A stretch of DNA of 63,462 nt, the filler included, from Kipferlia bialata (lineage: Eukaryota), in NCBI GenBank assembly GCA_003568945.1. It is 3 parts of 3 records of this genome, joined end to end, with 100 filler letters (N's around TTAATTAATTAA, not from the genome) between each part and the next. Parts side by side here need not be neighbours in the genome. Positions count along the whole stretch, not along the records: positions 28,997 to 49,220 come from BDIP01000022.1; 2 more parts are not named here. One strand, 5' to 3'. The translations under genes were made by a program, and so were the position numbers. Shown here one piece after another: positions 8,083 through 63,462 of this stretch. The notes beneath the pieces are model-generated. The model saw only the letters and a list, made by a program, of their open reading frames with translations, ran no database searches and had not been told where the DNA came from. The first letter of the stretch is position 1, and every line of letters starts with the position of its first letter.

Positions 8083-10971
8083 ATGTCTGGGACAGCACTC
8101 TCTTCTGGCACCTTGAGACGCATGTCGGAGAAGGTGAAGCAGCTGGACTGGATGGAAGGTATGCCTGGTGCAATGGGTTCATGTGGGGTGGATTCAGCTG
8201 TGTGAGTCAATCTAGCAGTATCGGTACCATATCTTTCACTGCTAGTACAGTGTCATTTATAGCTATACCCCGAGAGTGTGTTGTGTGTTGAGGTGTTATC
8301 TGGGTAGGAACCCTCCCGCTGACCTCAGGGGAGACCCCCGAGGGGGTTCCCGCCGAAGTCCTGGCCCGGTTCGCCAGCATGAGTAAGACGGACGGTGCCG
8401 ACGGGGAGGTGCTGGCCCTGTGTGCCCAGCAGGGGCTGGTGTCGTTCGAGACACTGTCTGGGGACAGCGTGGGCATTGCCTCTGCCTCCACGAGGGTAAG
8501 GCCCCAGAAGGCCCCCTCGCAGAAGAAGGCCAAGAAGTCGAAGGCCGACAAGAAGATGGAGGCAGAGAAGGCAGCCGCTGCCATCGAGAGCGCCAAGGCA
8601 GCGGCCCTGGACAGTGAGTGGGCCAAGATGGGGCTCAACATGGAGCTGGCAGCAGGGGTGATCCACAGTGGGTTTCCGTCTCCCTTTGCCATTCAGACCA
8701 GGGCCATTCCCTCTGCCATTGAGGGCAACCACACGCTGATCGAGGCAGAGACAGGGTCCGGGAAGACGCTGGCCTTTGTGCTGCCTGTGATCCACTCGTG
8801 GGTCGCCAGGAGGGAGGTGGGTTATCTCTGTATCGTGACAGTACCACTAATGAATGAATCTTTCTCTTCTCTATCCACCCCTATCCTTATCTGGCTCACC
8901 AATAGCTTGAGACCGCTAGGGGCGTTGCCCAAGGGACCGCCCCCGCAGATATCGAGCATGACCACTCCATGTATGCCCTGATGGTGGCACCCACAAGGTA
9001 CGGGCCCAGTGTCTGGATTGTGATACATGCTGAGTCAACTCTGATATCGTATGTTCACACTGGAAATAGTGCCAGATATACGTTTTGTAAAGAGTTTATA
9101 TAGAGCTCTTTCCTCTTGATGGAGTGTCCAAGTTTGTACGAGTATTCACATACCTGTAAGTATTGAATATACCGCGTAGTTTGGCCCTTCCCTGATACCA
9201 GGGAGCTGGCCCTCCAGATTGCCTCAGTGGCCACCTCCTGCGGCAGGATGGTGGGGTGCCGGGTGGCCTGTCTGGTGGGAGGCCTGGCTGTGCAGAAGCA
9301 GACACGCCAGCTGGACCACAACCCAGCCATTGTGGTATGCACCCCAGGCAGACTGCTGCAGTTCCTGGAGGACACCCCTCACACACACCTGCTGGTGGGA
9401 ATGAGGACAGTCAGGTATACACGTGTATACGTGTGTATACATGAATATCCAGAGACAAAGAGTGTATGAGAGTATGAGTATAGTGAATTGTAGGTGATGC
9501 ATGTCTGCTGTCTCTGTGAGTGTGTCTCTGACCATAGGTGGCTTGTGCTGGACGAGGCAGACAAGATGCTGGAGAAGGGCAGGTTTGGCGGCCTTGTGCA
9601 GGCGCTGAAGAAGATGGACGAGGCGTCAGTCCACCCCCAGCTCATCATTGCCTCTGCCACCCTGTCTCCCCCAGACAACCACAGGGACAGGAGCCTCAAG
9701 GTGCGGTGGGGTGTGTATGTACAAGTATCGATATGTCCCTCCCCCTCTCACCTCAGATACCTCAGAAGGGTATCATGGCAGACTGTGTAAGGGCCATCAA
9801 GAATGAGTACCAGGGAGGGGAGATCCACGGGCGGCCTGTGCGGTCTCTGATGGGGTCTGCCTCTGTCCAGACCCCCTCTGCGCTGGTGGAGAGGTGGGCC
9901 CGGTGCTCGTCCTTCGAGGACAAGGGTGCCAGGGCCCTGTACCTCCTCATCACCAGGGAGGTCAAGACCCTGGTGTTTGTGGACAGCATCAGGCTGGCCA
10001 AGTCGTTTGTGGGCATGCTGCAGCTGCTGTCGATGCCTGCCTGGAGCGTGCATGCCTCCATGCCCCAGAGGCAGAGGCTCAAGAACATGGACAGGCTCCG
10101 CAGTGTGGAGGGGTGCATCATAGTCTGCACAGACGTGGCAGCCAGAGGCCTGGACGTGCCCTCTGTCGACATGGTTGTGCACCTGTGTGCCCCTGTGTCC
10201 CCCGAGGTCTATGTCCACAGGGCAGGAAGGGCGGGCAGGGCAGGACGGCCAGGCCTCAGCGTGGCCCTGGTGGCCCCCAGGGACGAGGGCGCCTATGCCT
10301 CTGCCCGTGCACTGCTGGGTGCAGAGGAGACGGCGTCCTACAGCGGATACGACTCGATGCCCTTCCGCACTGGGTCTCTGAACCTGATGAGGAACGTGTA
10401 TGCCCAGGCCACCCTGCTGGAGAGAAGGGAGGCAGCCCTGAGGGAGAGCTGCAGGGACATCAGCACCAACGCCAGGATGCTGCTGGAGGCTGGGCTAGGG
10501 GAGCAGGAGGAGCTGACGGAGGAGCAGAAGGAGAGGGAGAGAGACAGGCACACGGAGGTGGACATCATCCGATCCGACCTCCGCAAGATGCTCAAGACTG
10601 ACATCACGGCAAGGACGGTGGCCGAGGCCCTGGCGCTCAAGAACAACACCGACGCCTCCCTGGACATAGTGCTGAGGGAGAGCCCCAGGAAGGTGGACGT
10701 GGCCCGGGGTGCCAAGGCAAAGGCAAAGGCAAAGGCAAAGGCCCTGCGGCGGCAGAGGTGGCAGGAGGAGAGGGCGGCTGAGGAGGAGGCCGAGATGGAC
10801 GCAGCAGATGCCGCCATGGAGGAGGGTGAGGAGGGGGACGCAGAGGTAGAGGAGGCCGAGGCTGAGCCTGTGGCCGTTCCTGCACCCAAGCCCAAGAGGC
10901 GGCCCGTGCCTGTGTCGCGCCTCAATGCCACAGCCCTGGTCAAGGGCATGATGCGCAAGACAAGGAAGTGA
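8083..10971 (+). CDS. DDX24: DEAD-box RNA helicase DDX24/Mak5 (60S biogenesis)
   Basis: Q motif GFPSPFAIQ, AETGSGKT, PTRELA split by an intron, TPGRL, DEADKML, SAT, HASMPQRQRLKNMDRL (Mak5-type), TDVAARGLD and HRAGRAGRAG. The start may instead be 8122. Confidence 0.88.
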
Positions 10972-11324
10972 GGGACACAAGGTTGTGGACTCGATTTTTT
11001 AGGGTTTGATATTGTTATTATTCGTATTTGTGACTCTGGTAAGTTGATTACTATCAATAGAGTGTGTATGGCTGTGTATCAATGTTCCTGAATCTGACTT
11101 GGTGGAGTGGGCCCCAACTTCATACTGTACATGTCTTATTATCCTACCTATCTGGGTCTGTGACTGATACTGATTCACTGTTGTTTGTTATTATTGAAGT
11201 TCCTTGTCACTCACAAGTTGTCACTGACTGGGTTACCAGAACTTCTGAGTCAAACACTCAGATTGAAGAAGGGGTTCTTCTCCAAGCTTCTCAGGAGAGC
11301 ATTCCTCCTTCTCATCGCTGACTC

Positions 11325-12431
11325 ATGACTGATGTATCAGCGGGTCTGACTCCACGAGAGTTGTTGCTCGTGTTCTCTTTAGCCAAGCGTGTTGGGGAGA
11401 CCACTCCGGAAGGGGATGTGGCCCACGCCCTGATGCGGCTGATCCAGACCCTGTCCTACAACAGCCCCTCCCAGTACAGCAGGGTGCAGTCCCTCTCGGC
11501 CCCTGACCTGGCTGCTCTGGTGGCCAGGCCCCAGGGGCTGAGGCAGAAGTACACCACGTATATCAGCCGCCGTGCCAGTGTGGCGAAGGGTGCCCTGCGG
11601 GTGTCACTGCTGAGGGAGATTGCACAGCTCAGGAAGGGGGTCGATCACTCATCACTCCAGGAGGACGGGGAGAGTGTATTGGAATCATGTGAGGGGGGTG
11701 CACCGGTTGAATCGTTGCGAGAGGTACCAGATCATAAGTCACATCAGTCCATGCCAGACATTGTAGATGCAAGCACTGAGGACCCCCGAGGTCCCACTGA
11801 GATCCACCCTCCCTCGCCTAGTAGGGTAGCCCCAGCCGGTGGCGTGGCCTCTCCTGTCCCTGTGACTGAGGGTGATGCCGCGATCCTTCCCCCTGCCCCA
11901 GCCCAGGATGACTATCTCAGTGGAATGGACGAGGCCAGTGCTCCAGAGTCCCCAGACACCCCTCCCCTCTCCCTCGCAAGGGGTCCCTGCCACGCCCCCT
12001 TCTTGCACGCAGCAGAGGCAGACTCTATCATCCGGCACAAGTGGGGGGCATCTTTGGCTCAGCTCTTGTCGCCTGTGTTGGATACCCTAATGGAGTCCCC
12101 CTACTCCGCTCTCTTTAGATCAGGCGATCCCCCGCTAGATAGTGCCGCGTACCGAAGTGTAGTGCGGCGCCCCATGCATCTGGAGAAGGTGAGGTCGGGT
12201 CTGGACAAGTACGCTAGCAGTCGCCATGTGATGCGAGACCTGCTGCAGATAGCGGCCAATGCCATGTACTACAACGAGGCCATGTCCTGGGACGTGCACT
12301 CAGACGCCCTGCACTTCAGACAGGAGTGCATCCTGGCCTTCGAGGCATTCTGGCAGGGCGTGGTGGACGGGACAGTGCTGCCAAAGGCGTCCAAGACAAC
12401 AAGGCGCCCCACGAGGAGGTGCCGGCGCTGA
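11325..12431 (+). CDS. Single-exon bromodomain protein (BRD8-like architecture)
   Basis: 368-aa ORF with C-terminal YRSVVRRPMHL...DLLQIAANAMYYN, retaining the acetyl-lysine-binding Asn. Confidence 0.82.
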   Translation: MTDVSAGLTPRELLLVFSLAKRVGETTPEGDVAHALMRLIQTLSYNSPSQYSRVQSLSAPDLAALVARPQGLRQKYTTYISRRASVAKGALRVSLLREIAQLRKGVDHSSLQEDGESVLESCEGGAPVESLREVPDHKSHQSMPDIVDASTEDPRGPTEIHPPSPSRVAPAGGVASPVPVTEGDAAILPPAPAQDDYLSGMDEASAPESPDTPPLSLARGPCHAPFLHAAEADSIIRHKWGASLAQLLSPVLDTLMESPYSALFRSGDPPLDSAAYRSVVRRPMHLEKVRSGLDKYASSRHVMRDLLQIAANAMYYNEAMSWDVHSDALHFRQECILAFEAFWQGVVDGTVLPKASKTTRRPTRRCRR

Positions 12432-28854: not shown

Positions 28855-28896
<42 letters not shown>

Positions 28897-28996
28897 NNNN
28901 NNNNNNNNNNNNNNNNNNNNNNNNNNNNNNNNNNNNNNNNTTAATTAATTAANNNNNNNNNNNNNNNNNNNNNNNNNNNNNNNNNNNNNNNNNNNN
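28897..28996. other. Scaffold gap with artificial TTAATTAATTAA spacer
   Basis: N run with a six-frame-stop linker, flanked by poly-C. Confidence 0.97.
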
Positions 28997-29128: not shown

Positions 29129-31834
29129 AGTATCTCTGCCGTTGCAGCCACCAGAGGCATCCCATACAGTGAGGCAGAGCGGTTGCTGGCAGGTACACAC
29201 ACTCTCTCTCTCTCCAGCCACCCCTCTCTATATCCTCTATTCGTATTCATATCCTGTACTTCACAACTCTCTTTATATATATATATACACACTCTTACCC
29301 CCCAGGCCTCTTCACCTCCCTGGGTGCCAGGTGCGTGCTGTCCGGTGCCACCTTCCAGGCCATGAGTGCATATCTAGAGGCAGACAGGTTCATAGCAGAG
29401 GCCGGAAAGACAAAGTGAGTGGAGACCGTATATACATACCTAGTACATGCACTCCCTTGACTCCCTAGCTTACCCCTAGGCTGCCAGTTGTTGTCTCCCT
29501 GTGCCCCGGTGAGGTTGTATACGCCACCAAGACCAAGAGGAGTCTGCTGCCATACATGAGTGACGTGCCCAGGTACACACATTCACACACACACACCTTC
29601 ATGTATTCAATACGATATGACATGTATGAATGCAGACCATGCCCCCCCTCTCTGTGTATACCCTCACCCCAGCCAGCAGTCTGTGGCTGGCCACTACATC
29701 AAGGCAGGGCTGGTCCCTGGGTGCACAAGCCACATGTCCCTGCAGCCGTGCTTTGACAGGTATATATATATATACACTCACACATATGGATACTATATAT
29801 CATACCCCCCCCCCCTTACCCCCCCAGGAAGCTCGAGGCTGCTGACCCTGCCAATGTGTATGGGTCTACACCCCTGACCGACTTCACCCTATCCACAACT
29901 GAGGCACTGGGACTCATTCAGGTATTCATACAGACACCTATATGTGTGTATGGTGTACTACTCTACTCTTTATGCTGCTCCTCACCACCCAGGAGAGGAC
30001 CGAGGGTGATGCATCCATCCCACCCTGTGACACTGTGGCTGTGGTAGAGGGGGGACAGGCAGAGATGGGCAGCGGGAACAGGTGGGTAGACAGATACTCT
30101 ATTGTATACGAACACTATCCCTCTCTCCCCCAAAATACGATTGTGTGTTTTCATCTGTACATTCATAACCCCCCCCCTCACCCCCAGCATGGGTGGGTAT
30201 GGCGACATGCTGGCTGCCGTCCTGTCCCTCAGGGGCTGGGTGCAGGAGGGGGGCATGGGGGAGTGGCAGAAGGGCAGGAACATGCACTGGCTCGTCAGGT
30301 ATTCATCAGTAGCTATATACACATATATGAATAGTAATGATCTGGCTAGTCAGGTACAAGTATGTCCATGTAACTCTCTCTGTGTTCATACACACACACA
30401 CACAAATATATACATATTTCTCACCGGCTAGGCACGTGTCTCTGACCCCTGACTGTCCCCTAGTCCAGACACTCGGCACAGACACACTCACCCTGGCTAG
30501 GTACATAGATATGTATATGCACTAAATTATATACAGTATGTATGGGTTGGTGTGACCGTCCTTTCTTGGCACAGACACACTCACACTGGCTAGGTATGGT
30601 ACTATATATACAATATACATATATAAGATATGTAGGTAGATATGTGTCATTGCGTGTGTCCTTTCTCTCACCCCCAGGGTCTCCTCCTTCAAGAACACTG
30701 TTAACCTGACCAACGCACTCAAGAGGAAGGAGAAGATACACATGGTGGAGCTAGGTACATACAGCTATTCACTGTACATTCACACACTACATCTCTCTCT
30801 CTATATATATTTCTATTTTCTTACCCCCAGGTGCCTGTCCAGGGGGATGCATCAATGGAGGTGCCCAGCTGGCCCCCGAGAGAGAGAGGGAGTATGACCT
30901 CAGGACACTCAAGGTATATGTGAGAAGAGCATCACTGCATACTCTATATGTATGTGTGTGTATGCCCCTCACCCCCAGGTTGCAGGTGAGGTCCTTGCCG
31001 AGAGGTTTGGGTCAGGCACCGAGGACCAGGACACCTTGGACAGGGCTCTGGCAGAGGGGGCTAGGTATATAGTCTATGAATATATACATATATATATATA
31101 TAGAGAGAGAGAGTAGGACAGTCTAGACAGGGCACTGGCAGAGGGGCAAGGTGGGTGTATATGTATATTGTAGTATATATATATATATATATATATATAC
31201 ATAGAGAGAGAGAGAGAGAGAGTAGGACAGTCTAGACAGGGCATTGGCAGAGGGGAAAGGTGGGTGTATATGTATATTGTAGTATATATATATATATATA
31301 TATATACATAGAGAGAGAGAGAGAGAGAGAGCAGGACACCTTGGACAGGGCACTGGCAGAGGGGGCTAGGTATGGTTCCAATTGTTATACAAGACAGGGT
31401 CACTACAGCAGTATACTCTCTCCCTTCCCCATCCTCACCCAGGTCTGTCATTGACCGTGTGTGCATCATACTCTCTCTCTCCCTCTCTCTCTCTCTCCCT
31501 CTCTCTCTCACCCCAGGTCTGTCATTGACAGGGTGTGCACCGGTCTCAAGGTGGATGCCTCTGCCCTCAGAGTATCCCATGAGTCCAGGAGGGTGCTGTC
31601 CCCAGACGCAGTGGCAGCAGGGTGAGTGGTAGAATGTACATATGCTATATACATATATGGCAAGGTGATTATGTAAATTCATATATTCCTCTCTGCAATA
31701 TCCCCCCCTCACCCCCCGTAAGACTGGGTGAGTGATGATATATATACCGTTATGAGTTCCTCTCTGCTACTATCCTCACCCTCACCCCCAGTAAGACTGG
31801 TGTGCAGGTCAGTCTGGCAGACCTCCAGTGGTAG
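29129..31834 (+). CDS. NAR1: NAR1/NARFL/CIAO3 ([FeFe]-hydrogenase-like CIA factor); 5' end lost in the gap
   Basis: Spliced motifs SLCPGEVVYATK, LLPYMSDVPSQQ, LQPCFDRKLEA, DFTLSTTE, MGGY, SFKNTVNL and VELGACPGGCINGGAQ; ends ...ADLQW* (terminal Trp). Confidence 0.88.
31029..31372 (+). repeat. Four copies of a NAR1 exon end plus donor (GGACA..GACAGGGC..TGGCAGAGGGG..AG|GT)
   Basis: Copies at about 31029, 31115, 31225 and 31334, separated by TA/GA microsatellite. Confidence 0.92.
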
Positions 31835-36551: not shown

Positions 36552-36748
36552 AGCTAGTCACACCTAGCGAGAAATGGGGGACACAATTGTGCCTGGTCAT
36601 CGTTAAACCCTTCAGTGAAAAACTGCCTGTACCCTTTTGAAAAACGAGACTGAGTACACTACGAACCATGCCCTCCATATCAGCTTGAGTAGGCTAGTCT
36701 CAGCCCATAGGGTGTGATAGAGTGTAGAGACACAGTCTGTGTGTTGCC

Positions 36749-37250
36749 ATGAGCATCAACTTCAAATGGAGTGACCTACAGGGGAGCACGGCGATGCTGA
36801 AGGACTTCATACACCAGGTATGGGTGTCTATCCGGATATACATAGTACCATTCCAAAGAGTATACACATACTGGTCCACTCTCTGGTAACTGGTTGTTTT
36901 GAGAGGAGTGTGAATATGGTGGTTGGTATGTCCCTCTCTCATATATGTGTGTGTATCAAGGCACGTACTCATATCCAGTGGATTTGTATACTGTCCCTAA
37001 CCTATCTAGGCCACTGTGGCTAGTAGTGATCAGTATTTGTGTTTGTATTGACTCTGGTAGTGTTTATATGGTCCCACATACCTATCGTGCCCGTATATAC
37101 CTATTTCACCCCTCACTCTCAGGCCACTGTTGCCATCAATGACCAGGGTGTGTTCCCAGGGGGGGTGTCCCTAGACCTCCTAGAGTTGGGGTCTCCTCCC
37201 CAGTTCAACCTGAAGAGTCTGGATTGCATGTCAGAGGGTATGGGTCTCTG

Positions 37251-37285
<35 letters not shown>

Positions 37286-37489
37286 GTATGTATGCCTGTA
37301 TTCCCATTCCCTCATTCTAGGCACTGCGTGTGTGTCCTTCATGCCCTTTCACACACACACACACACACTCTCTCTCTCGTTCTACCGTATACATACATAC
37401 TAAGTATCCCTCACCCCAGGCACCGTGGGTGTCTCCTTCACGCTCTCTCTCACTCTCTTCCTCTCTCTTCCCTCACCCCAGGCACCGTG

Positions 37490-37521
<32 letters not shown>

Positions 37522-38612
37522 CCCCCCCCTAATTCTAGGCACTGTGGGCGTCTCCTTCACGCTCCGTGCCTCTGATCCAGTCAAGGTCAAGCTGAGTGCA
37601 GACGTCAACACTAGCCCATTTGCAGCGCATGACAGGTACAGCATGCATTATGTATAGATATTGTGGTGTATAGATAGCTCACCCCCCTCACACCCAAGGC
37701 CGAGGCAGCGTGCGTATGACTTCATTTATGCATACACATATATATAAGAATAAATTTTTATAAATGTATGTATGTATTGGAGATATATGTATAAATATTG
37801 CTTATACTAGGCCTAGGCAGCGTGCGTATGACTTCATGAATGTGGGCCTCGCCGCTGCCCCCGCTGTGATGCCCCTCTCCATCACCCTGTCCCACCTGTC
37901 ATTCGATGTGTCGGGGTCCATCACAGTGGATGCAGGTATTGTGCACTATCATATGAAATATACTATCGTATGGAGTTGATCTTAATTGTGTTTGTGTATG
38001 GTACCTCTGTAACACACGTTCCCTGTCTCTATCTCTATATTTGTAGTTATCAACTATATATATCACACCCCATAGTACTAACTCCCACAGTGTGCATGTT
38101 CCGTCTACCCCATCTCCCTCTCTCTCTCTCTCTCTGTGTATATATCTACTACTATATATATTCCCTTTCTCTTGAGTCTGCCTGTTCCGTGTCCCCCATC
38201 TCCCTTTCTCTCTCTCTGTGTGTGTATATATATACTACTATATATATATTCCCTTACTTCAGAGTCTGCCTGTTCCGTGTCCCCCATCTCCCTGGTCGAG
38301 GTCTTTGCACCCTTGATCTTTGGCCAACAGGGAGACCAGAAGGCCCCAGGTCAGTCTCTCTCTCTTCCTCTCTCTCTCTCTCTCCCTCTCTCTCTCTCTA
38401 TATATATATGTCTCTCTGTCTCTCTCTCTCTCTTACCCTCAGCTGGCAAGGGAGTGTTTGAGATCCTCAACGATGGGTATATATCCAACCTGGAGTTTGA
38501 GACGTCCTTCGACCACTACCCCCTCTTCACACCCATGCTCAGAAGGGTCGTGGTGCCCATACTCAAGAGGGTGCTCTACAGGGCCCTGTCCAGGGTCGAG
38601 TTTGACATCTAG
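36749..38612 (+). CDS. SMP-domain protein, Mdm34/Mmm2-like (ERMES), 220 aa, 6 exons
   Basis: Exons 36749-36817, 37123-37237, 37539-37635, 37811-37935, 38263-38349 and 38443-38612 are in frame. MSINFKW, LELGSPPQF, LSADVNTSPF, GLAAAPAVMPLSITLS and LNDGYISNLEFETSFD parallel Mdm34 MSF.FNW, L.FG..PP, L.TKVQANPL, A..PL.VP..L.LS and F.NDPL.S..VSSTFD. Confidence 0.75.
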
Positions 38613-39253
38613 GGCATGGCTGGGTGTACTACTACCTTGGGCCAAGGCGTCGAGTTTGATACCGAGGGGTGTTCTGAAGCTATGGGGTTGCTGTAGGGTA
38701 GTTGGAGGGATGATGGTAGGAGACCTAGCCCACTAGTGCTAGTGGTACTAGGGGTCCTCGTGGGGCTAAAGGGTGTTAGAGGACAAGGGTTGCAGGTGGA
38801 TGGTGCAATCCGACTTTGCTTTGTGTATGTTGTGTTGTTATGTTTGCAGAATCGTTCATTATTGAGTAATATTATGTTAATATAAGCGGAGGTGTTCATG
38901 TATTAGTTTCTTGGTATGTATACAGACAAGGGAACTGACTGTCAAACACTCACTCACGAAATCCATTGTAGCCACCCTAGACTGGCATACACCACACACA
39001 TACCATAGGAACACACTAATACACACTGGTATAGATACAGGCATCGCTAGACACCCTCATACCATCATACAACAACATCGCCAACCACACACGCACACCC
39101 TCTTCTTCGGTTAGAACATCCAAACATACACACACCTACTCTCCCACTCATACAGACTCTCTCTCTCTCTCTCTTGAAAAACCCCCTTGGCCAAAACAAT
39201 GCACTTACACCCCTACAAACAGAGGCAGACAGGGGATACTACACCCTTAATGT

Positions 39254-47980: not shown

Positions 47981-49769
47981 ATGGGTACCTGTAGCTCTGT
48001 AAATCGTGACCCGGCAACAGACATTGAACATGCTGGTGATGCTGTTCCAATACCACTGACGCAGCCTGAAAACAGCAGGTATGGTGCATACAACATGTCC
48101 AAAGATATGGTCACTCACCCTTCTCAATATTGGTGTTCAGATACTCTCTGGTTGTATACCTCTTGTACCAAGGTCTCATATTATCCTGGTCCCCCCCCCT
48201 CCCCATCCTTTTTTTGCCCCCCCCCCCCCCCCCCCCTTTTTTAAATTATTCCCCCCCCCCCCCCCCCCCCCCTTTCTTTGAATTGATGTCTCTCTCCCCT
48301 CTTCTCATACCAGACTATGTTGACTACACCGCAGTGCTCTCCCTCCTGCCTGTACACAGGACAGCCATCTTAGAGGCATCACGCATTCCAGTACACACAG
48401 GGGTATGTTGGATTATGTGCATATACTAGTTGCATAATCATGTACGTATAAGTGGTATAGGACAGCAATCCTCGAGGCATCACGCATTCCAGTACACACA
48501 GGGGTATGTGTCCATTGTTACACAGACATAACTTATAGTTGTTGTATATATATATACATATATATATAGTGTCCATAGGACAGCCATTCTAGAGGCATCC
48601 AGAATTCCAGTACACACAGGGGTATGTAACAGATGTAGTAAATGTGAGATGTATATATACAGCATCCTTTTCCTCACCCTTAGGGCGTTGTGACGTCTGT
48701 GTCTGAGATTAAGGGTCTAGAGAGGACAGGGGCTGACACAAGGGTGGCCACAGAGGCAGAGAGAGACAGGGTATGCATACAAGTAGGATATTTACATATT
48801 GATACGTCTTTACATACTGTGTTGGTTTAGTCACCTATATATTGATGTGTGGCCACGGAGGAAGAGAGAGAGAGGCGAGGGTTTGTATACAGGTGATTTT
48901 ACAAAACAGTCTGACTTATCATGGACTCATTCACACTACCACCCTCGCACCATACCCTCTTTAGTGTCACACCATCATTATCTCCCTCTGTGTATATATC
49001 TGTATATCTCTATATGTGTGTACATTTCTTACATCTAGGTGTGCCCTGTACAGTGTCACACCTTCCTCTCTCTGTCTCTCTCTGTCTCTCTCTATATATA
49101 TTCTCACTACTAGGTCTGCCAGTGTGCCCTGTACAGTGTCACATCTTCCTTCTCTCTCTCTCTCCCTCTCTCTCTCTCTTTTCTAATATCTAGGTCTGCC
49201 AGTGTGCCCTGTACAGTGTCNNNNNNNNNNNNNNNNNNNNNNNNNNNNNNNNNNNNNNNNNNNNTTAATTAATTAANNNNNNNNNNNNNNNNNNNNNNNN
49301 NNNNNNNNNNNNNNNNNNNNAATACATATGTAGACTGATAACCCCCCCCCCCCCCTCCCCCTCCAGCTCTCTCTCTCTCTCGCTCCCATTTCGTAAACTT
49401 GAGTGTGAAGGGTCCCTCTCGCCTATCTCACCCTAGCACCAACAGTGCAGCTGCCGTGCAGTTTGGCAAGAGGGTGGTGCTCTTTGATGCACCCGAGGGC
49501 ATCCAGCACTCCCTCATGCACTACAAGGTACAATACTGATACTGATACTGATACACCTATTTTAATATATGTATTGTCTCTCATGCACTGCAAGGTACTA
49601 CCCCCCTGCTACCCCCCCCCCCCTCCTTACAGTTACGCCCCTCTCTCGTGTGTTACAGTGTCTTTCTTTTTCAACGTCTAACATGCAGCCTCCCACACAT
49701 CTTAATACACTTAATATCGCTCTCCCTTCCTATTATGTCTCCGTGGGCAGGATCTCCCCCATCTCTCCC

Positions 49770-49808
<39 letters not shown>

Positions 49809-51902
49809 TCTCCCTCTCAGGTCTCCCTGGGCAAGATCTCCACCATCTTTGTGTCCCATCTTCACATGGACCATGTGGCTGGACTAGTGCCACTGCTCAC
49901 ATCCATGAACACTAGGTATAGTAGATATGTGTCTGTTTGAGTATATACAATCAGGTCACGTCCAAGAATTCAGTGTATTGTATCAGTATCTGAACATATT
50001 CATGCCACATGTATATCACCCCCCAGGGCGCTGCACACCAGAGTCATTTGGATACATGTCTATCTGAAAGTATACATACATTGAGTTGTCAGTTCATATA
50101 TATTGTATATATCGTGTGTGCATTCCCACATAACATTAGGGCCCTGCACACCAGGGTCACTGTGATAGGACCCAAGGGTATCAAGGAACTGATGGACGTG
50201 TACTGCAGACTCACCTTCTCAGACTTTGCTCCATCCCTGCAGGTGCGTACGTATACACACATATCTATATTACATAATGAAATATCTTCCTGAACAGAGT
50301 TTCTGGTGGCATTTCCATCCTATCCTAGGGTCCTAGAGATGTTAGAGATGGTATGTAACACTATACTCTTCTCACCCCTAGGTCCTTGAGATGGAGGAGG
50401 GCGTGTCTCTGACCCACCCCATATCTGAGTCCTGCACCCTGACCACACACACCCTCACCCACGCCGTGCCCTCCTTTGCAGCAGTGCTCAGGGTTAAGGG
50501 TAGAGCAGCCATAGACATAGAGAGGTATATTCCCATATTGCGGTGTGGTTCACTACTATATACTGTATACATGCATGTCTTCGGGGTCAGGCGCAGGGCA
50601 GCCATAGACATAGAGAGGTATATTCACCCATAGCAGTGTGGTTCACTGCTATATACTGTATTCATGCATATCCTCGTGGTCAGGGACAGGGCAGCCATAG
50701 ACATAGAGAGGATCCGACTTACGTATGACTCATTGTACTTGGAGTGTATCTATGTTCAATTCACATATACAGTCAAGTGTATGAATAGTCTGTTAACAAG
50801 GTATCCCTCACTCCTTCATATATATGTATATGCATAAGTATGGTCTCTTTGTCTTGTCCCTCACCCCTTAGGCTCAAGACAGCCGGGTTCCCTATAGGCC
50901 CATTGTGTGGGGACCTCATCAAGTGAGTGTACATCTATGTGGTTACAATGCTATGATCCAGTGCTGTTGTAACAATGTATTGTAGGATTGTCTTTGCCAT
51001 ACATGTGTATTTCTACATACATTCACATACCGTCTGTCCTCACTTTCAGGCTGGGCAGGGTGACTGTTAACGGCAGAGAGTACATACACTCGGACTACAC
51101 GCAGACCAACAGGGACAGAAAGGTACATAGGCGCTCACTGTATACCCTTACTGTATGTTACCCTGTTTCTGACTCCTCAGGTTGTCTTCTGCGGTGACTG
51201 CTGCTGGGACACAGCCGTGCCAGAGCACAGGTATACATCATAACACATATATTCACATACATATGAGGATTGGCAAATCCGTTATAGATATAGGTTGAAT
51301 CCATGTATATACTATCCTGTTGTTTCTGCTTCTGACCCCAGGGCTGCCCTTGTACAGGATGCCATGGACTGTGACCTCTTGATACACGAGGCAACGTTCG
51401 GAAGGTTAGCATGTACACATATACACACTATCAGTGTTTTCTTTCGTGACCCCAGGGACATGGCTGCCAGGGCCCCTGGTATGGGCCACTCCACCCCTAG
51501 TATGGCAGGGTGTGCATCCAAGGCAATGCAGGCCAGGTGCATGGTCATGACGCACATCAGCAACAGGTATGTGTCTGTTGTAGTGAATATATGCAAGTAT
51601 GATACTACTACATTTCTATTATTGCCTACCTTCTGACCACCAGATACCTCCAGGGTCTCGAGAGGGATGTACCAGCAGAGCCAACATCTGAAGGAGGAGA
51701 CAACACGAAGTACTCAAAGTACGAGCCCCTCTTCCTGTCTGGCAAATGCTTCGACGCAGTGTTTGTGACAAGTGACACAGTCCAACACGGTTGTGGCATA
51801 CCAGGCGACTCCCCCTTGTCACAGTTCATACCCGATGCACTGGAGGCAGGGGCACAGGCAGTGTGTCTGGCCAGGGCAGGGCTCAAGGTAGCATTCTCAT
51901 AA
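47981..51902 (+). CDS. tRNase Z, short form (ELAC1-like); linkage of the exons 5' of about 49100 is uncertain
   Basis: SASVP..TNSA, LFDAPEGIQ, IFVSHLHMDHVAGL (HxHxDH), IGPKG, THAVPSF, GP exosite GFPIGP, FCGD, DLLIHEATF, GHST and MTHISNRY. Confidence 0.9.
49221..49320. other. Scaffold gap with artificial TTAATTAATTAA spacer
   Basis: N run with the same linker as 28897-28996. Confidence 0.97.
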
Positions 51903-52138: not shown

Positions 52139-54454
52139 CTAGGCCTTGGCAAGGGAGAGAGCCGTTGTCTCGACCGTATCGATGTCTGTCTCTCCCATTA
52201 CGTCTCTGGTCATCCTGCTGAAGAAGCAGAGCCAGGCACGGTGGGAGGCAGCAGCGGGGTCGGCGTACCTGGGGGTGAGGGGGGAGTATTATATCATGCT
52301 ACTATACTAAGTGAGAGTAGAAGGATGAATGGAAGCACACACCTAGTGAACAAGGGACAGAGACACGCCCTGCAGCTGGAGAGCAGGGGTATCAGCACAC
52401 TCCTTCTGACCGTCTCCCTTCTGAGGTACCCCTCCAGGTCAGACCCCTGTGCAGCACCTCTCTCCACAGGTAGCATGGCCAGTATATCCATCTCTAAGGG
52501 GTGCTCACAGGCAGCAGAGAGGAGCTGCACAACGACATGTGCCGTACTAGACACCCCCTGGTCGGTACTGCAGCATAGCATCTGCAGGGAGGCACCCATG
52601 TCTGGGGGCACTATGGACACGGGTAGGGGGGCAGAGGGTGTCACAGAGCACAGTCTCTTGGCCAAGCCCAGGGCCTGGCCTCCCATACAGGGTATCTGGG
52701 CAGCTGTCCTGACACAGAAGGAGAGCAGCACCCTGGAGCATGTATCGACACCGAGGGAGAGAGAGAAGGCCGGGGCCAGCCTGGAGTAGAAGTCGTCGAG
52801 GAAGTCCTGTGTAGCCTGGGTCGATGCTCTATCATTCAGATAGGCCACGAAGCACGTTGCGATGTCCGGGTTGAACTCCTCCATAGTAGATACGAGGAAG
52901 GAGGCGTCCTCACCCTGGGAGTGGAGGTCGACGCACTCGAAGGCCAGGTAGGCTATGTAGCACAGCACAAGGACGGAGAAGGGAGCTAGGCCATGTCTCG
53001 AGGTGCCATGCACAAGAAGCCTAGGGGTAAGGGGTATAGTAGGGGAGACTACCTAGTAACAAGTAACAGAAGGCAATGTTCTCTTTTGAACAGAGGTGTC
53101 TATAGTATTACCTCCAGAATGCGAGTGAGAATGGCTCCGTCTGTGGTCTGTACTTCATGGGCACTGCCTTCTCCAGGGTGGCAGCGTTAAGTAGCAGCAG
53201 GACCTCTGCCTCCCCAGGTACCAGGCCCTGTCCCTCAGTCTGGGGGTCATGGTCTGGGGGCAGGTACCCCCTGCTGCCGTAGAGGAAGGCCTTGACCACA
53301 CTCCACTGCAGGTCGGTACTCTTGTCGGGACTGGGAGAGGGACGGTCGGCATCGACCTTGGGGTGAGGGGGAGTGTGAACACACACATACATATTTGTAA
53401 TATTCACACACATATATATATATACGTACATGCAATATGTACCTTAGACAGCGCAGACAGGCACTGGGTGAGCATCTCCACCCCAGTTGCTACTAGACTG
53501 GCACTGGGTCCACCCAGTAGCACAGAGGCCAGCACACCCACACTCTCCACACCGGCTGCACCCGAGGCAGTGCCTAGTCTAGCTGCTAGGCCAGCATGTC
53601 TGGGTAAGATAGACGTACATAGACATAATATAGAAGAGGTATACCGTCCTACCTAGAGTACAGCACGAGAGCATCCGCCGTTGCCTTGACGCATGCTCTA
53701 CATGTCTCTGCATTACCCAGTGCCCTACCAGAGTGGGTGTGTCTGACATCCCTGATGGACCTGGTGAGTACTAGGGCCAGCATCCTGGAGTGCCACAGGG
53801 GAGGGGTGTGCATGTTGGGGAGGACGGGCTCAACCCTGCAGTGAGTATGGGATATAGATATAGAGAGATGACTTGGTATATGCCCCACCTCGGGTGTGTG
53901 GTGACCACCGCGAGATACACAGCCAGACAGTGCAGCCTGGCGATGATGCCAGACCCACTACCGGGGGAGCCCTGGCTGGCCCACAGCAGAGCCTGGTGTG
54001 GGGACGATTTTCATGAAAGAGAGAGAATATTACACCAGTATGTATATATAGAAACTGAATATAACTGTACCCATACAGCAGAGCGTGGGGTGGGAGTAGA
54101 TCACAGAGTGGATGATGACGCCCCTCTATGACATATATGCTATATCCATACCTGAGCTGTCATTGAGTTGAGGACCCCCGGGGACACGAGGCTCAGGAGA
54201 GGGGTGACGAGGGAGAGGTCCATGTCTAGGACATTGCTAGGGGGTTAGGTATATACAGAGAATGCAGAGAGGGCTGATGTAGACATATATTCCTATACCT
54301 GAACGCACTCCCCCTGTGTGCGGGTCTGGACCTAGCAGTCTGTGCCACGTTGTATGTGTTTCCCGTCCTCCTCCAAGGCCCGCCAGGTGCATACTGCTCA
54401 GACAGGTGGTGGTGCAGGGGGGCGGCAGGGAGGGTCATGAAGTCACGGCCTGCG

Positions 54455-54497
<43 letters not shown>

Positions 54498-54540
54498 TTG
54501 GAAGGGTCATGAAGTCACGGCCTGGGGAGTAAGTAGATGA

Positions 54541-54579
<39 letters not shown>

Positions 54580-57500
54580 GTACCTGGGGGAGGTGGGAAG
54601 GGGGCCCTCCTTCTGAGTGCAGACTGGGTGCTGAAGACTGACAGCTTGGATGGTCTAGTGGGTAGGTCTGAGGTGGTGGCTGCGGCCTGGGTCTGACGCA
54701 CCACGGCATCGTACACAACCTTGGTTAAAGGGACTCTACACACTACACTATATATATATATTTGCAATAGACAGCGTACCTGGTGAGCGATGTACTTTGC
54801 CAGGTCCCCCCTGTCTGCACCGAGTGACCCCTCGCCCTGGGCCTTGTTGAGGACGGCAAAGAGGAAGTTACCTACCAGCTGGGGGAGGAGCTTGTACCTG
54901 GGGTCAATGGGAGAATATGCAATTTCTGGCAAGTCAGTTGTACTCACCTGTGGAACACGACTCCGTTCAGCAGCACTGCCGGGAAGCATGGGCCATAGTC
55001 CCCCCCATTGGTATGTGCCAGGTTTGTCAACAGCATGTATGCGGCCTCCTCTGCGTCTGTGCACTTTGGCACAGAGAGAGGGGGTAGCAGCATGGAGGCA
55101 GGGGAGAGAGAGGCCTCCCAGGGTGCGTCCCTCAGCTTGTCGACTAGGTACGACACGAGCGAGGCGTCAGGCCTAGCAGATATCTCAGCCACGGCCCTGG
55201 CGACATAGGAGGTGGGGGCATCATGGCACGTGGCAACGATCCAGTGCAGCCTGGGGTGGGTATACACACTATAATAGATATACTATCTGGTATGCCCCCA
55301 CCTTCTGAGTAGTCTCCTGGACACCCCCTCCGCCCCTGCTCCCCCATGGGTACTGCCCCTATCCAGAGCACTCTCACCCACTAGGGCATCAGCCCACAGC
55401 GTCTGCAGCACCCACCCGTACTGCCCCAGGCTGTACTTGGAGGGGTGGGTCTCATCGCACTCGGGACTGGTCTGCACACACAGTCTGGTGAGGACTAGCA
55501 ATATATCGATCAACTCGGTGGTCAGGGAGGGAGAGGGGGCAAAGCCTAGCCTGCACAGTCCGATGGTGGGGTGGCCGAGTCCACTCTCCCTTGGGTCGGC
55601 ACTGCTGACCAAGGGCCTGAAGGCTGACACCACCTCTGCGCATATCCTGATGGCTGATACCCTAGCAGGTGCAGCCAGCATAGGGAGGCATGACACCACA
55701 CCCCTGACTATGGGCACACACAGGGGGGGGCACACCATGCCTATGGACCTGGCCACCTCGGTTGATACCTGCAGGGCATGCACATACTCAGTGGGGGTCT
55801 GGATGGGTAGGTAGGGGGCAGCGGTGCGAAGGACAGACAAGGGCTGGGCTAGGGCCGCTGAGACGGTGAGGGGCTCGGAGTCGTCGTTGGCCTCATCCTC
55901 ATCCAGACCGGCCTGGGGTCAGGGACATAGTATACAGTACAGTTATAATGAATATATATACTTACCTGTGCCAGGAAGCATGAGAGTGCGTCAGTCGTGT
56001 GCTGTCTGATGTGTGGGTCAGTGTCCATCAGTAGCACCAAGGCCACAGCTAGTACCATCCCTAACTGATCCAGGGACCCATAGACGGCACTCAGCTTGTC
56101 CTCATTAGACATGTCGACACTCTCTGCCACTGACCTGTCAACACCCTCTAGCAGCACCTGTGTTGAGAAATATATATGTATATCTAGAGTAGTCATAATA
56201 CATACATGTATATTAGGAGCACCTGCCCTGCATCGGGTGCATCCACCAGGAATCAAAATGTATATCTAGAGTAGCCATGATATATATATGTATACTATTA
56301 TAATATTAGGAGCACCTGCCCTGCATCGGGTGCATCCACCAGGAACCCAAAGATGGCATCGATGTGGGCAAGGGCCAGGAGGAGAGGGGTGGTGGTGTCC
56401 TGGGGGTAGAGGCCATATAGAGCACATCATCACAACTCTCTCTCTATATATATAACAAATATTATACCTTTGGGGGGTACAGCAACAGAGCATAACAGCT
56501 ATATACATACAGGCCATACCTTTGCCACGACTGGCTCATCACAACTATACATACATATACATATATTTAGTATATATATGAAGTATATATCTCTACCTTT
56601 GACACCACTGGCTCTGGCGCAGGGTGGCAGGGCAGAGACATCATGATGACAACAGGACGGACATCCTGGGGTCAGAGAGTGACTTAGAGTTATATATATG
56701 TATATGAATATATATATACCTGCTCCTCGTCGAGTGTGTGTGTGTGGCAGGGGTATGCCGCATATGTCACAGACTGTACGGGTACTCTGTTGGCACTCAC
56801 TAGCAGGGTGCCGCAGAATGCCTTCAACAGCTGGGTGCGGGCGGCACCTGCGTTGTCGAGGGCAGCAGAGAGTACCTTAGGTGAAGACGTGGGAGAGATA
56901 CACACACATATACATATACACCCTACACCCACCTTTGTAACCCCTGGCAGTGTGTGTGGCCCATGCTTGAGGAAGGGCAGGCAGAAGGGCACAATGGCGT
57001 CACTGAGGGAGAGACCCCTGCAGTCTGCATACACCAGTGCCTCAACAGCAGTTAGTAGAGTACACTCTGCCCAGCAGTTGGGTGCAATGTCCCCACTGAT
57101 CAGAGGCTGTTTGGGTAAGTGGTCGCAGGTGATGCGCAGTCTCTTGAAGAGAGGCCACAGGGAGGGGCAGAGGTCGGGGCTTGTCACAAACAGCCTCACA
57201 CTGTTGAACACCCCCTCCTGTGACATGCCGCCCATGGGGTCTGTGCTGAAGGGGGTGGGGGAGTCTGCCATAAGTGGGTTTGGCACTGCTCTAGTGGGTG
57301 CAGGGGAGATGGGGCTGTCAGGCTGCGACCTCTGTCTAGAGGGGGGCGTACGGGGTGTACGGGTAGGGGGCAGATCGGCGCTGTCCGAGAGGCTGGGCTC
57401 GTCCAGGTCCCCACTCCTCTCTCCCTCTCTCTCCTCCCCCTCAGGCTCTCTGGCCTCCTCTCCCTCTCCATCCATTGGCATGTCAGGCCCCCTCAGCACA

Positions 57501-61000: not shown

Positions 61001-61941
61001 ATAGATCATTCATATTACATCACACATAAGACTATATATATCATACATATGACTATATGTACACAGCACTGCCACTGGAAAATACAAGAGTATTTCTGAG
61101 TGAAATACCATAGTATAGAAGTAGTATAGTGCATATAGTCCTGCACCTGCCCCAGAATGGGTCCCCGTCTGTCATTGCATCCACACTAGGGGGGATGATG
61201 GCCTCAAACTGCTTGGCCAGCACACGGCACAGCTCCTGGGGTTACATCTGGATATATATATATGTATATATACATGACTAATATGTATAGAGAGAGGGAA
61301 TGCTTCGTTAGCACACGGCACAGCTCCTGGGGTAAGGCATCCACACAAATACCTACAACACACACAATAGCAACTCTTGGATTATACAATGCGGTCAGTA
61401 AGTACATATATATACTATAAGAGTGGTCAAAGTGCACCTGTCTGAGCACCCCCCTCTGCACCCTGGGTATACAGACTCTATATACTATATATATATACTA
61501 TAGAATATACCCCCCTACCTGTCTGAGCACCCACCTCTGCACCCTAGGTATACATACTAAATACACTATATATATATACTATAGAATATACCCCCCTACC
61601 TGTCTGAGGACCCCCCTCTGCACCCTAGGAATATATACTCTATCTACTATATATATATATATATATACACTATATATACTATTTTATATATATACCCCTA
61701 CCTGTCTGAGCACCCCCCTCTGCACCCTGGGCAGCAGAGACAGCACAGCATCAAGGACCTGGGGGGTGAGGGAGGAGTAGGTTGGTACAATATCACTATA
61801 CAATATACACTGAGTGATCCACACCCTTTGTATACCTTGATAGTGGCTGGTGTCTGTGGGCTGTCCCCCAGACCCAGACCCAGGTCAGTCAGGGAGGAGG
61901 CATACGTGGCATAGTCTCTGGGGGTTAGCATAGAGAGAGAG

Positions 61942-61982
<41 letters not shown>

Positions 61983-63462
61983 GAATAGTTATACCCTACT
62001 ATGGATTAGTGAGGGAGGAGGCATACGTCGCATAGTCTCTAGTGGTGAGTATGTATATATATAGTACATTGTATATAACACATATACCCATACCTGCAGT
62101 CTGTCTTCCTCATGTCCTGGATGAATGTGGCATGCATATATAGTATATACAGTATATAGTATATAGCACATGTATCTATACCTGCAGTCTGTCTTCCTCA
62201 TGTCCTGGATGAACGTGACATGCATTATATAGTGTATATAGTATATAGTATATATACATGCCCATACCTGCAGTCTGTCTTCCTCATGTCCTGGATGAAT
62301 GTGGCATGCAGTGACACCACCCTATTAAGGTGGGGTGTGTGTGTGGAGAGCAGACCCAGTGTTCTAGAGGCAGCCTCCCTCACGTCCAGAGGGTAGTTGT
62401 AGGCCAGCTTGCCCCACAGCATCTCAATCAGGGTGTCGGGGACAGCGGATAGAACAGAGGCCTGGGATAAGGAGTGCTACTATACATACATACATACTAC
62501 ACTAAGCTGTGGTCAAAGGGCAAGAAGGATGCCTAGTTCTAGGACAGATAAGGGATGTTCACAAACTCTCTCTGTTAACCTCAATATCTGTATACTGATA
62601 CTCAATATCTGTATAGTGATACTATATATACTACAAGACCCACCTTGTCTGTGTGGTCCAGACTCCCATTGACCACCCCGTCCATCAGTGTGAACAGGGT
62701 ATGGGTCAGCCAGTAGTCCACACTCTGGCCCTCCCTGGGGGCCATGGCCTCGGCCTGGGGGGTCAATACACTCATATATAGAGAGCCAATATATATATAT
62801 ATATCTATATAACCATGACTAGGGGGCCATGGCCTCGGCCTGGGGGGTCAATACATCACCATATGATACAAAATACTTATACAAACATATACAGAGAGAG
62901 ATTCTACTGGAGGGTACTCCCTGGGAGCCATGGCCTCGGCCTGGGGTGTTAATGTACAATAAGATTGAAAGAAAGTAAGAGAGACTGAGACAGAGAAAGG
63001 GTGACAGAATATCTCATACCTTCTCCAGGTCAGCCTGTGCTGGGCGTCTCTCATCTGAGGACACGGGGAACTCTGGGGGTAAGGCAATGGGAGAGTAGAT
63101 AGTATACTAGGCGAAGTATTATACATAACAATATATATATATATATATATACCTGATGGCAGGGCATCACCCAGGGCTAGCACCCTATTGATGGTGTACA
63201 CCACCCCATCTGGGAGAGGGGACCCCAGGGCCACAGAGACCAGCGCAGACTGGAGGGTGAAGAGAGCAGACTCGCACAGGGAGACTGTGTAGTCGGGCAG
63301 ACAGTTGTCGGTGGGGAAGGGGAAGGCGAGGTAGTCAGGGACGGAGAGCAGCTTGGCACGGCGGATGAGGACATCCTGGATCTGGTTGCAGGTGGAACTG
63401 GGGGTCAGAACGTAAAGGGGAGGGGGGAAGGGGGGGGGGGGGGGGGATGGGTGGGGGGGATT
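52139..63462 (-). CDS. Very large HEAT/ARM-repeat-like protein; 5' end beyond the window
   Basis: Dozens of minus-strand exons with CCCCAG acceptors. HEAT-like segments include LLMDTDPHIRQHTTDAL, YPLDVREAASRTLGLL and SASDITVVNSAVTALMQF. Stop TAG at 52141-52139. The family could not be assigned. Confidence 0.65.
61436..61730 (-). repeat. Four copies of a HEAT-gene exon end plus donor (+ strand ACCTGTCTGAGCACCCCCTCTGCACCCT)
   Basis: Copies at about 61436, 61517, 61598 and 61700, separated by TA-rich filler. Confidence 0.92.

Follow-up and report, generated by a model that had tools for sequence, protein, structure and literature searches.

The gene KIPB_000230, at positions 36749-38612 on the + strand of a 63,462-nt stretch of Kipferlia bialata DNA (hereafter the window: three assembly parts joined end to end), encodes a 220-residue protein that, judged from its predicted fold, is very probably a SMP/TULIP domain. 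The same fold-level comparisons indicate that this domain is probably of the type found in the endoplasmic reticulum (ER)–mitochondria encounter structure (ERMES), and, with rather less assurance, we favor the view that the protein is an orthologue of the ERMES subunit Mmm2 (Mdm34), predicted here to consist of a single SMP domain. The spliced product is identical, letter for letter, to the annotated “hypothetical protein KIPB_000230 [Kipferlia bialata]” (GIQ79569.1, UniRef100_A0A9K3CM81, EP00704_Kipferlia_bialata_P000230), and this accession is already in print, in Table S2C of a published survey, as “Kipferlia bialata NCBI mmm2 GIQ79569.1” (Kucerova et al. 2023, BMC Biol 21:259; PMC10648710). 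The fold-level results support this identification and match the published one, which makes it already known, not new. An earlier sequence-only reading of this DNA had guessed, correctly, that the host is a fornicate, as K. bialata proved to be from the identity of the product with GIQ79569.1. It had also presented the protein as a possible new ERMES find in the lineage, and that claim of discovery fails because the table just cited had listed the same accession as Mmm2 in 2023 (PMC10648710). What we add is an independent check at the fold level, a precise map of the exons in which a contig backs three of the introns, and a caveat: the evidence is thin both for the choice of Mmm2 over Mdm12 and for the claim that this is the only subunit, since ordinary sequence search leaves the protein unlinked.

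When the whole protein was compared with ESM Atlas clusters by language-model features, Mdm34_N came first (0.89, 178 of 256 shared), with MMM1 at 0.87 and Mdm12 at 0.87 (174 shared), all of them under the 0.9 below which an Atlas score is “a lead only”. In the corresponding structure search, the two top rows were Mdm34 clusters, with template-modeling (TM) scores by query of 0.68 and 0.62 (the second row reaching 0.73 by row), and both “meet the bar for a name”; all 10 of the rows in that list were SMP-containing clusters (TM 0.53-0.68). With exon 1 removed (residues 24-220), Mdm34_N was again first by features (0.89, 175 shared) and again occupied the two top structure rows (TM 0.65/0.69 and 0.62), so the assignment is independent of the N-terminal motif. 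The first residues may resemble the conserved start of Mdm12 and Mdm34. Over both searches the MMM1 feature score was 0.87-0.88, and the margin of Mdm34_N above Mdm12 and MMM1 was small.

In the TULIP fold, a long helix at the N-terminus, an antiparallel sheet with a strong twist and the closing helices together form a lipid groove. In the AlphaFold model of the Kipferlia protein, the order of secondary structure is a helix at residues 12-30, eight strands, and a helix at residues 194-215. Searched against the PDB with Foldseek, this model retrieved Mdm12 in 10 of the first 11 rows (rows 1-8, 10 and 11), the best row having an E value of 3.4e-3, a probability of 0.89 and a TM score of 0.30. 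A VIA-align scan of 48,161 representative chains, made without Foldseek, placed the SMP domain of E-Syt2 on top (Z 7.9, root-mean-square deviation 4.0, 142 aligned) and the Mdm12 chain of 5yk7 second (Z 7.6, root-mean-square deviation 4.4, 152 aligned), followed in rows 3-10 by Der f 7, Der p 7, CETP, K. lactis Mdm12, BPI, Takeout, the TMEM24 SMP domain and latherin. These ten, all of which we take to be TULIP-superfamily proteins, span Z 5.9-7.9, and every Z in the scan lies below 8, in a range that the tool calls common. Applied to Foldseek’s list, VIA-align gave a similar ranking, with E-Syt2 again on top (Z 8.1). The fold evidence carries its weight through the coherence of the match lists rather than through the size of the Z scores. 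The Atlas and VIA-align lists agree with the sequence-only reading that the protein is a stand-alone SMP/TULIP-type domain with nothing attached: Pfam hmmscan at E<=10 found no further domain, and the noted absence of a long C-terminal tail was borne out, since the Atlas structure alignments cover residues 1-220 or 14-218.

Weighing the subunit assignment

A number of results weigh against the identification as Mmm2, beginning with the Atlas and VIA-align scores given above, which fall in the ranges described as leads or as common. The Atlas’s own model of the protein has a predicted TM score (pTM) of 0.52 and a predicted local distance difference test score (pLDDT) of 0.61, and the AlphaFold model, built from the single sequence, is poor (mean pLDDT 39.9, pTM 0.31). 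The Foldseek check suggested by the sequence-only reading was favorable in that its first rows were mostly Mdm12 and unfavorable in that no match reached E<=0.001. Sequence searches leave the protein an orphan. Pfam hmmscan returned 0 families at E<=10 from a profile set that includes MMM1 (PF10296) and SMP_LBD (PF17047), a null that is weaker than it appears because the set is without Mdm34_N (PF26545) and Mdm12 (PF26544); HMMER’s filters also discard weak matches. There was no phmmer match among PDB sequences at E<=10, and against 1,835,955,588 representatives phmmer recovered only the protein itself at E<=0.001, so that the published fornicate Mmm2 proteins were not recovered either. A word-indexed search among proteins of near length likewise returned only the protein itself (1 of 478 candidates), both at E<=0.1 and at E<=10, and none of the 98 pattern matches from a metagenome scan was confirmed by tblastn. 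The subfamily is thinly resolved, at 0.89 for Mdm34_N versus 0.87 for Mdm12 by features; a tricalbin-like SMP cluster stands among the Atlas structure neighbors with a TM score of 0.67; and the best solved match in the 48,161-chain scan is E-Syt2, tied with Mdm12. Exon 1 has no support in the transcript contig described below, whose match starts at 37100 and so takes in the final 23 nt of intron 1. Lastly, the canonical partners are reported absent in the sections of the survey drawn on here, and an ERMES-type bridge from ER to organelle is therefore not buildable from known parts (PMC10648710).

The protein itself has the makeup of a soluble, anchor-free protein with an SMP domain at its N-terminus: no transmembrane-like stretch stands out (the maximum Kyte-Doolittle mean over 19 residues is 1.65; net charge -6), and Atlas alignments start from residue 1. 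The long C-terminal region of the fungal proteins (MDM34_C) is lacking, as the chain stops at residue 220, right behind the SMP domain. That region does not define the family across eukaryotes, because the tails of the Trichomonas vaginalis proteins TvMmm2a and TvMmm2b are only 12 residues long. The earlier description of the protein as Mdm34/Mmm2-like stands insofar as the nearest named clusters are Mdm34_N, while the preference for this family over Mdm12 depends on small margins.

An orthologue of Mdm12, the cytosolic middle subunit of ERMES, would look much like this protein, since Mdm12 is also tail-less, SMP-only and of about the same size. The best Foldseek matches are all Mdm12 chains, and Mdm12 reaches Z 7.6 in the 48,161-chain scan, but to our knowledge no Mdm34 structure has been solved, and Mdm12 would for that reason be the nearest solved relative of any Mmm2 too. 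In the Atlas, the Mdm12 cluster (0.87, 174 shared) lies near Mdm34_N (0.89, 178 shared), and in some clusters (rows 3 and 6) the Mdm12 and Mdm34_N models match the same proteins; nevertheless, Mdm34_N ranks first whether or not exon 1 is part of the Atlas query, and does so in features as well as in structure, whereas an Mdm12 cluster appears in 0 of the 10 structure rows listed in either search. Given also that the survey, by means of clade-specific hidden Markov models and HHpred, named GIQ79569.1 Mmm2 in the tables cited here (PMC10648710), we regard Mdm12 as an unlikely identity for the protein.

To much the same degree we doubt that the protein belongs outside ERMES altogether, as a stripped-down relative of tricalbin/E-Syt or of Nvj2/TEX2, or as a lineage-specific TULIP protein, serving another contact site or acting as a soluble carrier. 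It has none of the transmembrane, C2 and PH parts typical of the tricalbin/E-Syt and Nvj2/TEX2 families. E-Syt2 is the top solved match (Z 8.1 and 7.9), and tricalbin-like, Nvj2 and euglenozoan SMP clusters reach TM scores of 0.64-0.67, close to the 0.68 of Mdm34, yet the scores of the aligned parts are 627-669 for Mdm34_N versus 421 for the tricalbin-like cluster and 242 for Nvj2, and the only families named by language-model features, among the matches listed, are Mdm34_N, MMM1 and Mdm12. The undetectable sequence similarity to any ERMES protein (in Pfam, the PDB and 1.84 billion representatives) would fit such an outsider, as would the remaining ERMES subunits being reported absent from Kipferlia in the survey’s cited sections (PMC10648710). 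Still harder to credit is a non-functional gene, a model that is wrongly predicted or in decay and looks like an SMP domain by chance. Orphan status in every sequence search, low-confidence models and an exon 1 unconfirmed by the contig point that way; against it, all five introns are canonical GT..AG and the joined frame is open, third-position GC in exons (GC3) is 74% compared with a GC of 34-50% in introns, a contig (mean word depth 228) shows introns 2-4 removed where the annotation places them, and three different fold-level routes (Atlas, Foldseek and VIA-align) arrive at one superfamily.

Gene structure and transcript support

The sequence-only reading had given the coordinates of the gene and a spliced length of 220 residues and had held the gene to be invisible to an open-reading-frame track, and in each respect it was exact: KIPB_000230 has six exons on the + strand, spliced at GT-AG sites into an open frame of 663 nt (220 codons plus TAG). 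The gaps between the exons are five introns, all GT..AG, of 305, 301, 175, 327 and 93 nt. The start ATG at 36749-36751 is the first ATG past an in-frame stop (stop-to-stop frame 36728..36889), and the TAG stop lies at 38610-38612. The longest stop-to-stop frame across the gene (38082..38612, 176 aa) has as its coding share only the 56 residues of the last exon. Exons have a GC content of 57% with GC3 as given above, and introns 34-50%. The segments of the gene, with the decoy copies of splice sites discussed below, are as follows.

36749-36817, + strand: exon 1, 69 nt, residues 1-23; within the annotated protein
36818-37122, + strand: intron 1, 305 nt, GT..AG; holds a weak decoy (37008-37040) that is 73% identical to 37121-37153
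37008-37040, + strand: decoy in intron 1, one weak copy of the acceptor plus the start of exon 2, 73% over 33 nt
37123-37237, + strand: exon 2, 115 nt; covered by the X1 contig with 0 differences
37238-37538, + strand: intron 2, 301 nt, GT..AG; contig pieces stop at 37233 and restart at 37538
From 37311, 37410 and 37472, + strand: decoys in intron 2, copies of the acceptor plus the start of exon 3, 80%, 83% and 71% over 35 nt
37539-37635, + strand: exon 3, 97 nt; matched by the X1 contig
37636-37810, + strand: intron 3, 175 nt, GT..AG; explicit joint in the X1 contig
From 37689, + strand: decoy in intron 3, copy of the acceptor plus the start of exon 4, 83% over 35 nt
37811-37935, + strand: exon 4, 125 nt; matched by the X1 contig
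37936-38262, + strand: intron 4, 327 nt, GT..AG; contig letters past 37935 are the start of exon 5
38085-38293, + strand: array of intron 4, 3′ part of the intron plus the start of exon 5, 86-nt unit, 2.4 copies
38263-38349, + strand: exon 5, 87 nt
38350-38442, + strand: intron 5, 93 nt, GT..AG; largely (TC)n and (TA)n, no decoy found
38443-38612, + strand: exon 6, 170 nt including the TAG stop; its 55 residues retrieve the annotated 220-aa protein

The last of these exons, used as a 55-residue query among longer proteins, gave one match, the 220-aa KIPB_000230 (1 of 16 candidates). Transcript evidence comes from a public run, X1, which was labelled “RNA?” by guess and has 0.36 of the sampled words; the stretch compared was 36600-38190. 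One X1 contig of 2239 nt, with a mean word depth of 228, matches 37100-37233, 37538-37633 and 37809-37935 without differences. The joint across intron 3 is explicit in this contig, which skips 175 nt bounded by GT..AG; the contig is also consistent with the junction of exons 2 and 3, and after 37935 it goes on into the start of exon 5. It thus backs the removal of introns 2, 3 and 4 at their annotated sites.

The letters of the contig ahead of its match equal 36579-36608, so that the contig joins approximately 36609 to approximately 37101 and skips exon 1. Should those letters directly border the joint, the skipped segment, 36610-37100, has CT..AC ends on the + strand, equivalent to GT..AG on the - strand. 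On the - strand, going downward from 36609, there is an ATG, then an open frame, then a donor-like GT. The contig may have taken in a second spliced transcript, antisense or divergent, that overlaps exons 1-2 of KIPB_000230.

Boundary duplications and the rest of the window

In four of the five introns there are degenerate tandem copies of the intron’s 3′ splice site together with the first 25-31 nt of the next exon, as detailed in the list above. The intron 4 decoy that starts at 38165 has an identity of 89% over 35 nt; in it, TG stands in place of the AG of the real acceptor. The end of the coding sequence including the stop (20 nt, 38595-38614) is itself repeated 54 nt downstream, at 38649-38668, with 85% identity.

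Such repeats are found well beyond this gene. A seed scan of the window gave 36 pairs of local direct repeats, of which 35 lie beyond 30 kb, with a spacing of mostly 80-120 nt; many of the pairs contain a donor-like or acceptor-like boundary, on either strand. Tandem Repeats Finder reported 8 arrays, with periods of 72-109 nt and 1.9-2.9 copies, all within 31-63 kb, one of which is the array of intron 4.

31080-31364: tandem array
38085-38293: tandem array (intron 4)
49039-49220: tandem array
50505-50711: tandem array
54431-54566: tandem array
56176-56345: tandem array
61436-61663: tandem array
62056-62310: tandem array

The units of these arrays consist of what resembles an exon edge and a splice-site motif, along with (CT)n/(TA)n intron sequence, laid out either as an intron end followed by an exon start or as an exon end followed by an intron start. 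This pattern suggests frequent tandem duplication across exon-intron boundaries in Kipferlia, which leaves decoy splice sites inside introns. Microhomology with the introns’ (CT)n and (TA)n tracts may have seeded the duplications. A model in which introns arise when an AGGT-containing exon segment is duplicated in tandem reportedly predicts a different layout. Duplication of this kind is unmentioned in the searched passages of the Kipferlia genome paper (PMC5874029), and our search found no literature on introners in Kipferlia. One of the arrays, 49039-49220, is cut by the N run at 49221-49320, and its copy number there may be understated.

That N stretch and another at 28897-28996 each hold a pair of 44-N runs, filler between the joined parts; a 41-nt poly-C run (28856-28896) precedes the first. 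The two sides of the window differ in character: positions 1-30000 have a GC fraction of up to 0.63 and open frames of 350-695 aa, and positions 30000-63462 have a GC fraction of about 0.45-0.57, short exons and most of the boundary repeats. Two open frames on the + strand, 9538-10968 and 11322-12428, match Helicase_C (E 1.8e-23) and a bromodomain (E 3.8e-07), and are probably parts of one gene with few introns for an SNF2-type chromatin remodeller.

Possible role and comparison with known systems

The wider question is how the reduced mitochondria of anaerobes come by their membrane lipids. Passages of the genome paper describe Kipferlia as a free-living fornicate that has a hydrogenosome-like organelle and ~125,000 introns (PMC5874029). 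According to the parts of the survey cited here, which applied clade-specific hidden Markov models followed by InterProScan, HHpred and phmmer checks, ERMES components were lost stepwise, “gradually lost in Fornicata”: Kipferlia and Dysnectes are listed with Mmm2 only, and Ergobibamus, the diplomonads and the retortamonads with none (PMC10648710). Mmm1, Mdm12 and Mdm10 were not found in Kipferlia by that survey; for Carpediemonas, its text gives Mmm1 and Mmm2, and Tables S2A-C add an Mdm12 (KAG9392018.1) (PMC10648710). With ERMES present in parabasalids and absent in Giardia, Kipferlia with its lone Mmm2 represents an intermediate stage of loss, a point that was already made in print in 2023, in the same passages and with the same accession (PMC10648710). 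Our literature search found no other paper linking ERMES with Kipferlia or Carpediemonas, and no published organelle location or phospholipid binding for the Kipferlia protein.

If the protein works as SMP domains do elsewhere, its hydrophobic groove would hold the acyl chains of glycerophospholipids. By analogy with yeast and Trichomonas Mmm2, it would lie at the surface of the hydrogenosome-like organelle, bound to a beta-barrel protein on the cytosolic side of the outer membrane, and would pass ER-made phospholipids into that membrane. The lipid-transfer contact site between the ER and this organelle, which the sequence-only reading proposed for a fornicate host, is putative. Its partners might be too divergent for recognition, or it might be a remnant that shuttles lipid alone or as a homo-oligomer. 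That partners have been missed is plausible in a lineage whose Mmm2 escapes ordinary searches. Only tentatively, and with more doubt than confidence, do we propose that Kipferlia has either a lone, very fast-evolving Mmm2 that works without Mmm1, Mdm12 and Mdm10 (alone or on a new anchor), or a full but cryptic ERMES with over-divergent subunits. If this were true, the protein would represent a natural single-subunit remnant of ERMES that feeds lipid to a hydrogenosome-like organelle, or else a cryptic ERMES surviving in a fornicate.

Among solved structures, the SMP domain of E-Syt2 (4p42) has the highest Z scores (8.1 and 7.9), with the TULIP/SMP fold in common and an identity of 6-8%. E-Syt2 also has a membrane hairpin and C2 domains and acts at contacts between the ER and the plasma membrane, whereas the Kipferlia protein is without these parts. 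The closest solved ERMES structure is Mdm12 (5h5a, 5h55, 5gyd, 5vkz, and the chain in 5yk7), which is similar in size and likewise SMP-only; the alignments show 7-19% identity, and the Atlas places Mdm12 clusters below Mdm34_N. Mdm12 is, moreover, the middle subunit of ERMES and not the organelle-side one. By language-model features and by predicted structure, the nearest proteins are fungal Mdm34 (Mdm34_N PF26545 plus MDM34_C PF28355), in which the SMP domain likewise starts from residue 1. The fungal proteins of the matched clusters are 494-570 residues long and carry the C-terminal region, whereas the Kipferlia protein has 220 residues and no match to them at the sequence level.

The T. vaginalis proteins TvMmm2a (TVAG_217400) and TvMmm2b (TVAG_375920) are likewise SMP-only Mmm2 proteins from a metamonad, and they, like the Kipferlia protein, are very divergent from the yeast protein. 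T. vaginalis also has Mmm1, in five paralogues, and Mdm12, whereas no partner is reported for Kipferlia in the sections of the survey cited here (PMC10648710). The tails of TvMmm2a and TvMmm2b are 12 residues long and the Kipferlia protein has none; a tail-less Mmm2 is therefore already known in metamonads, given how short the Trichomonas tails are (PMC10648710). In the same sections, TvMmm2 is described as localizing partly to hydrogenosomes, and TvMmm2b is modeled as docking on the beta-barrel Porin2, the T. vaginalis anchor (PMC10648710).

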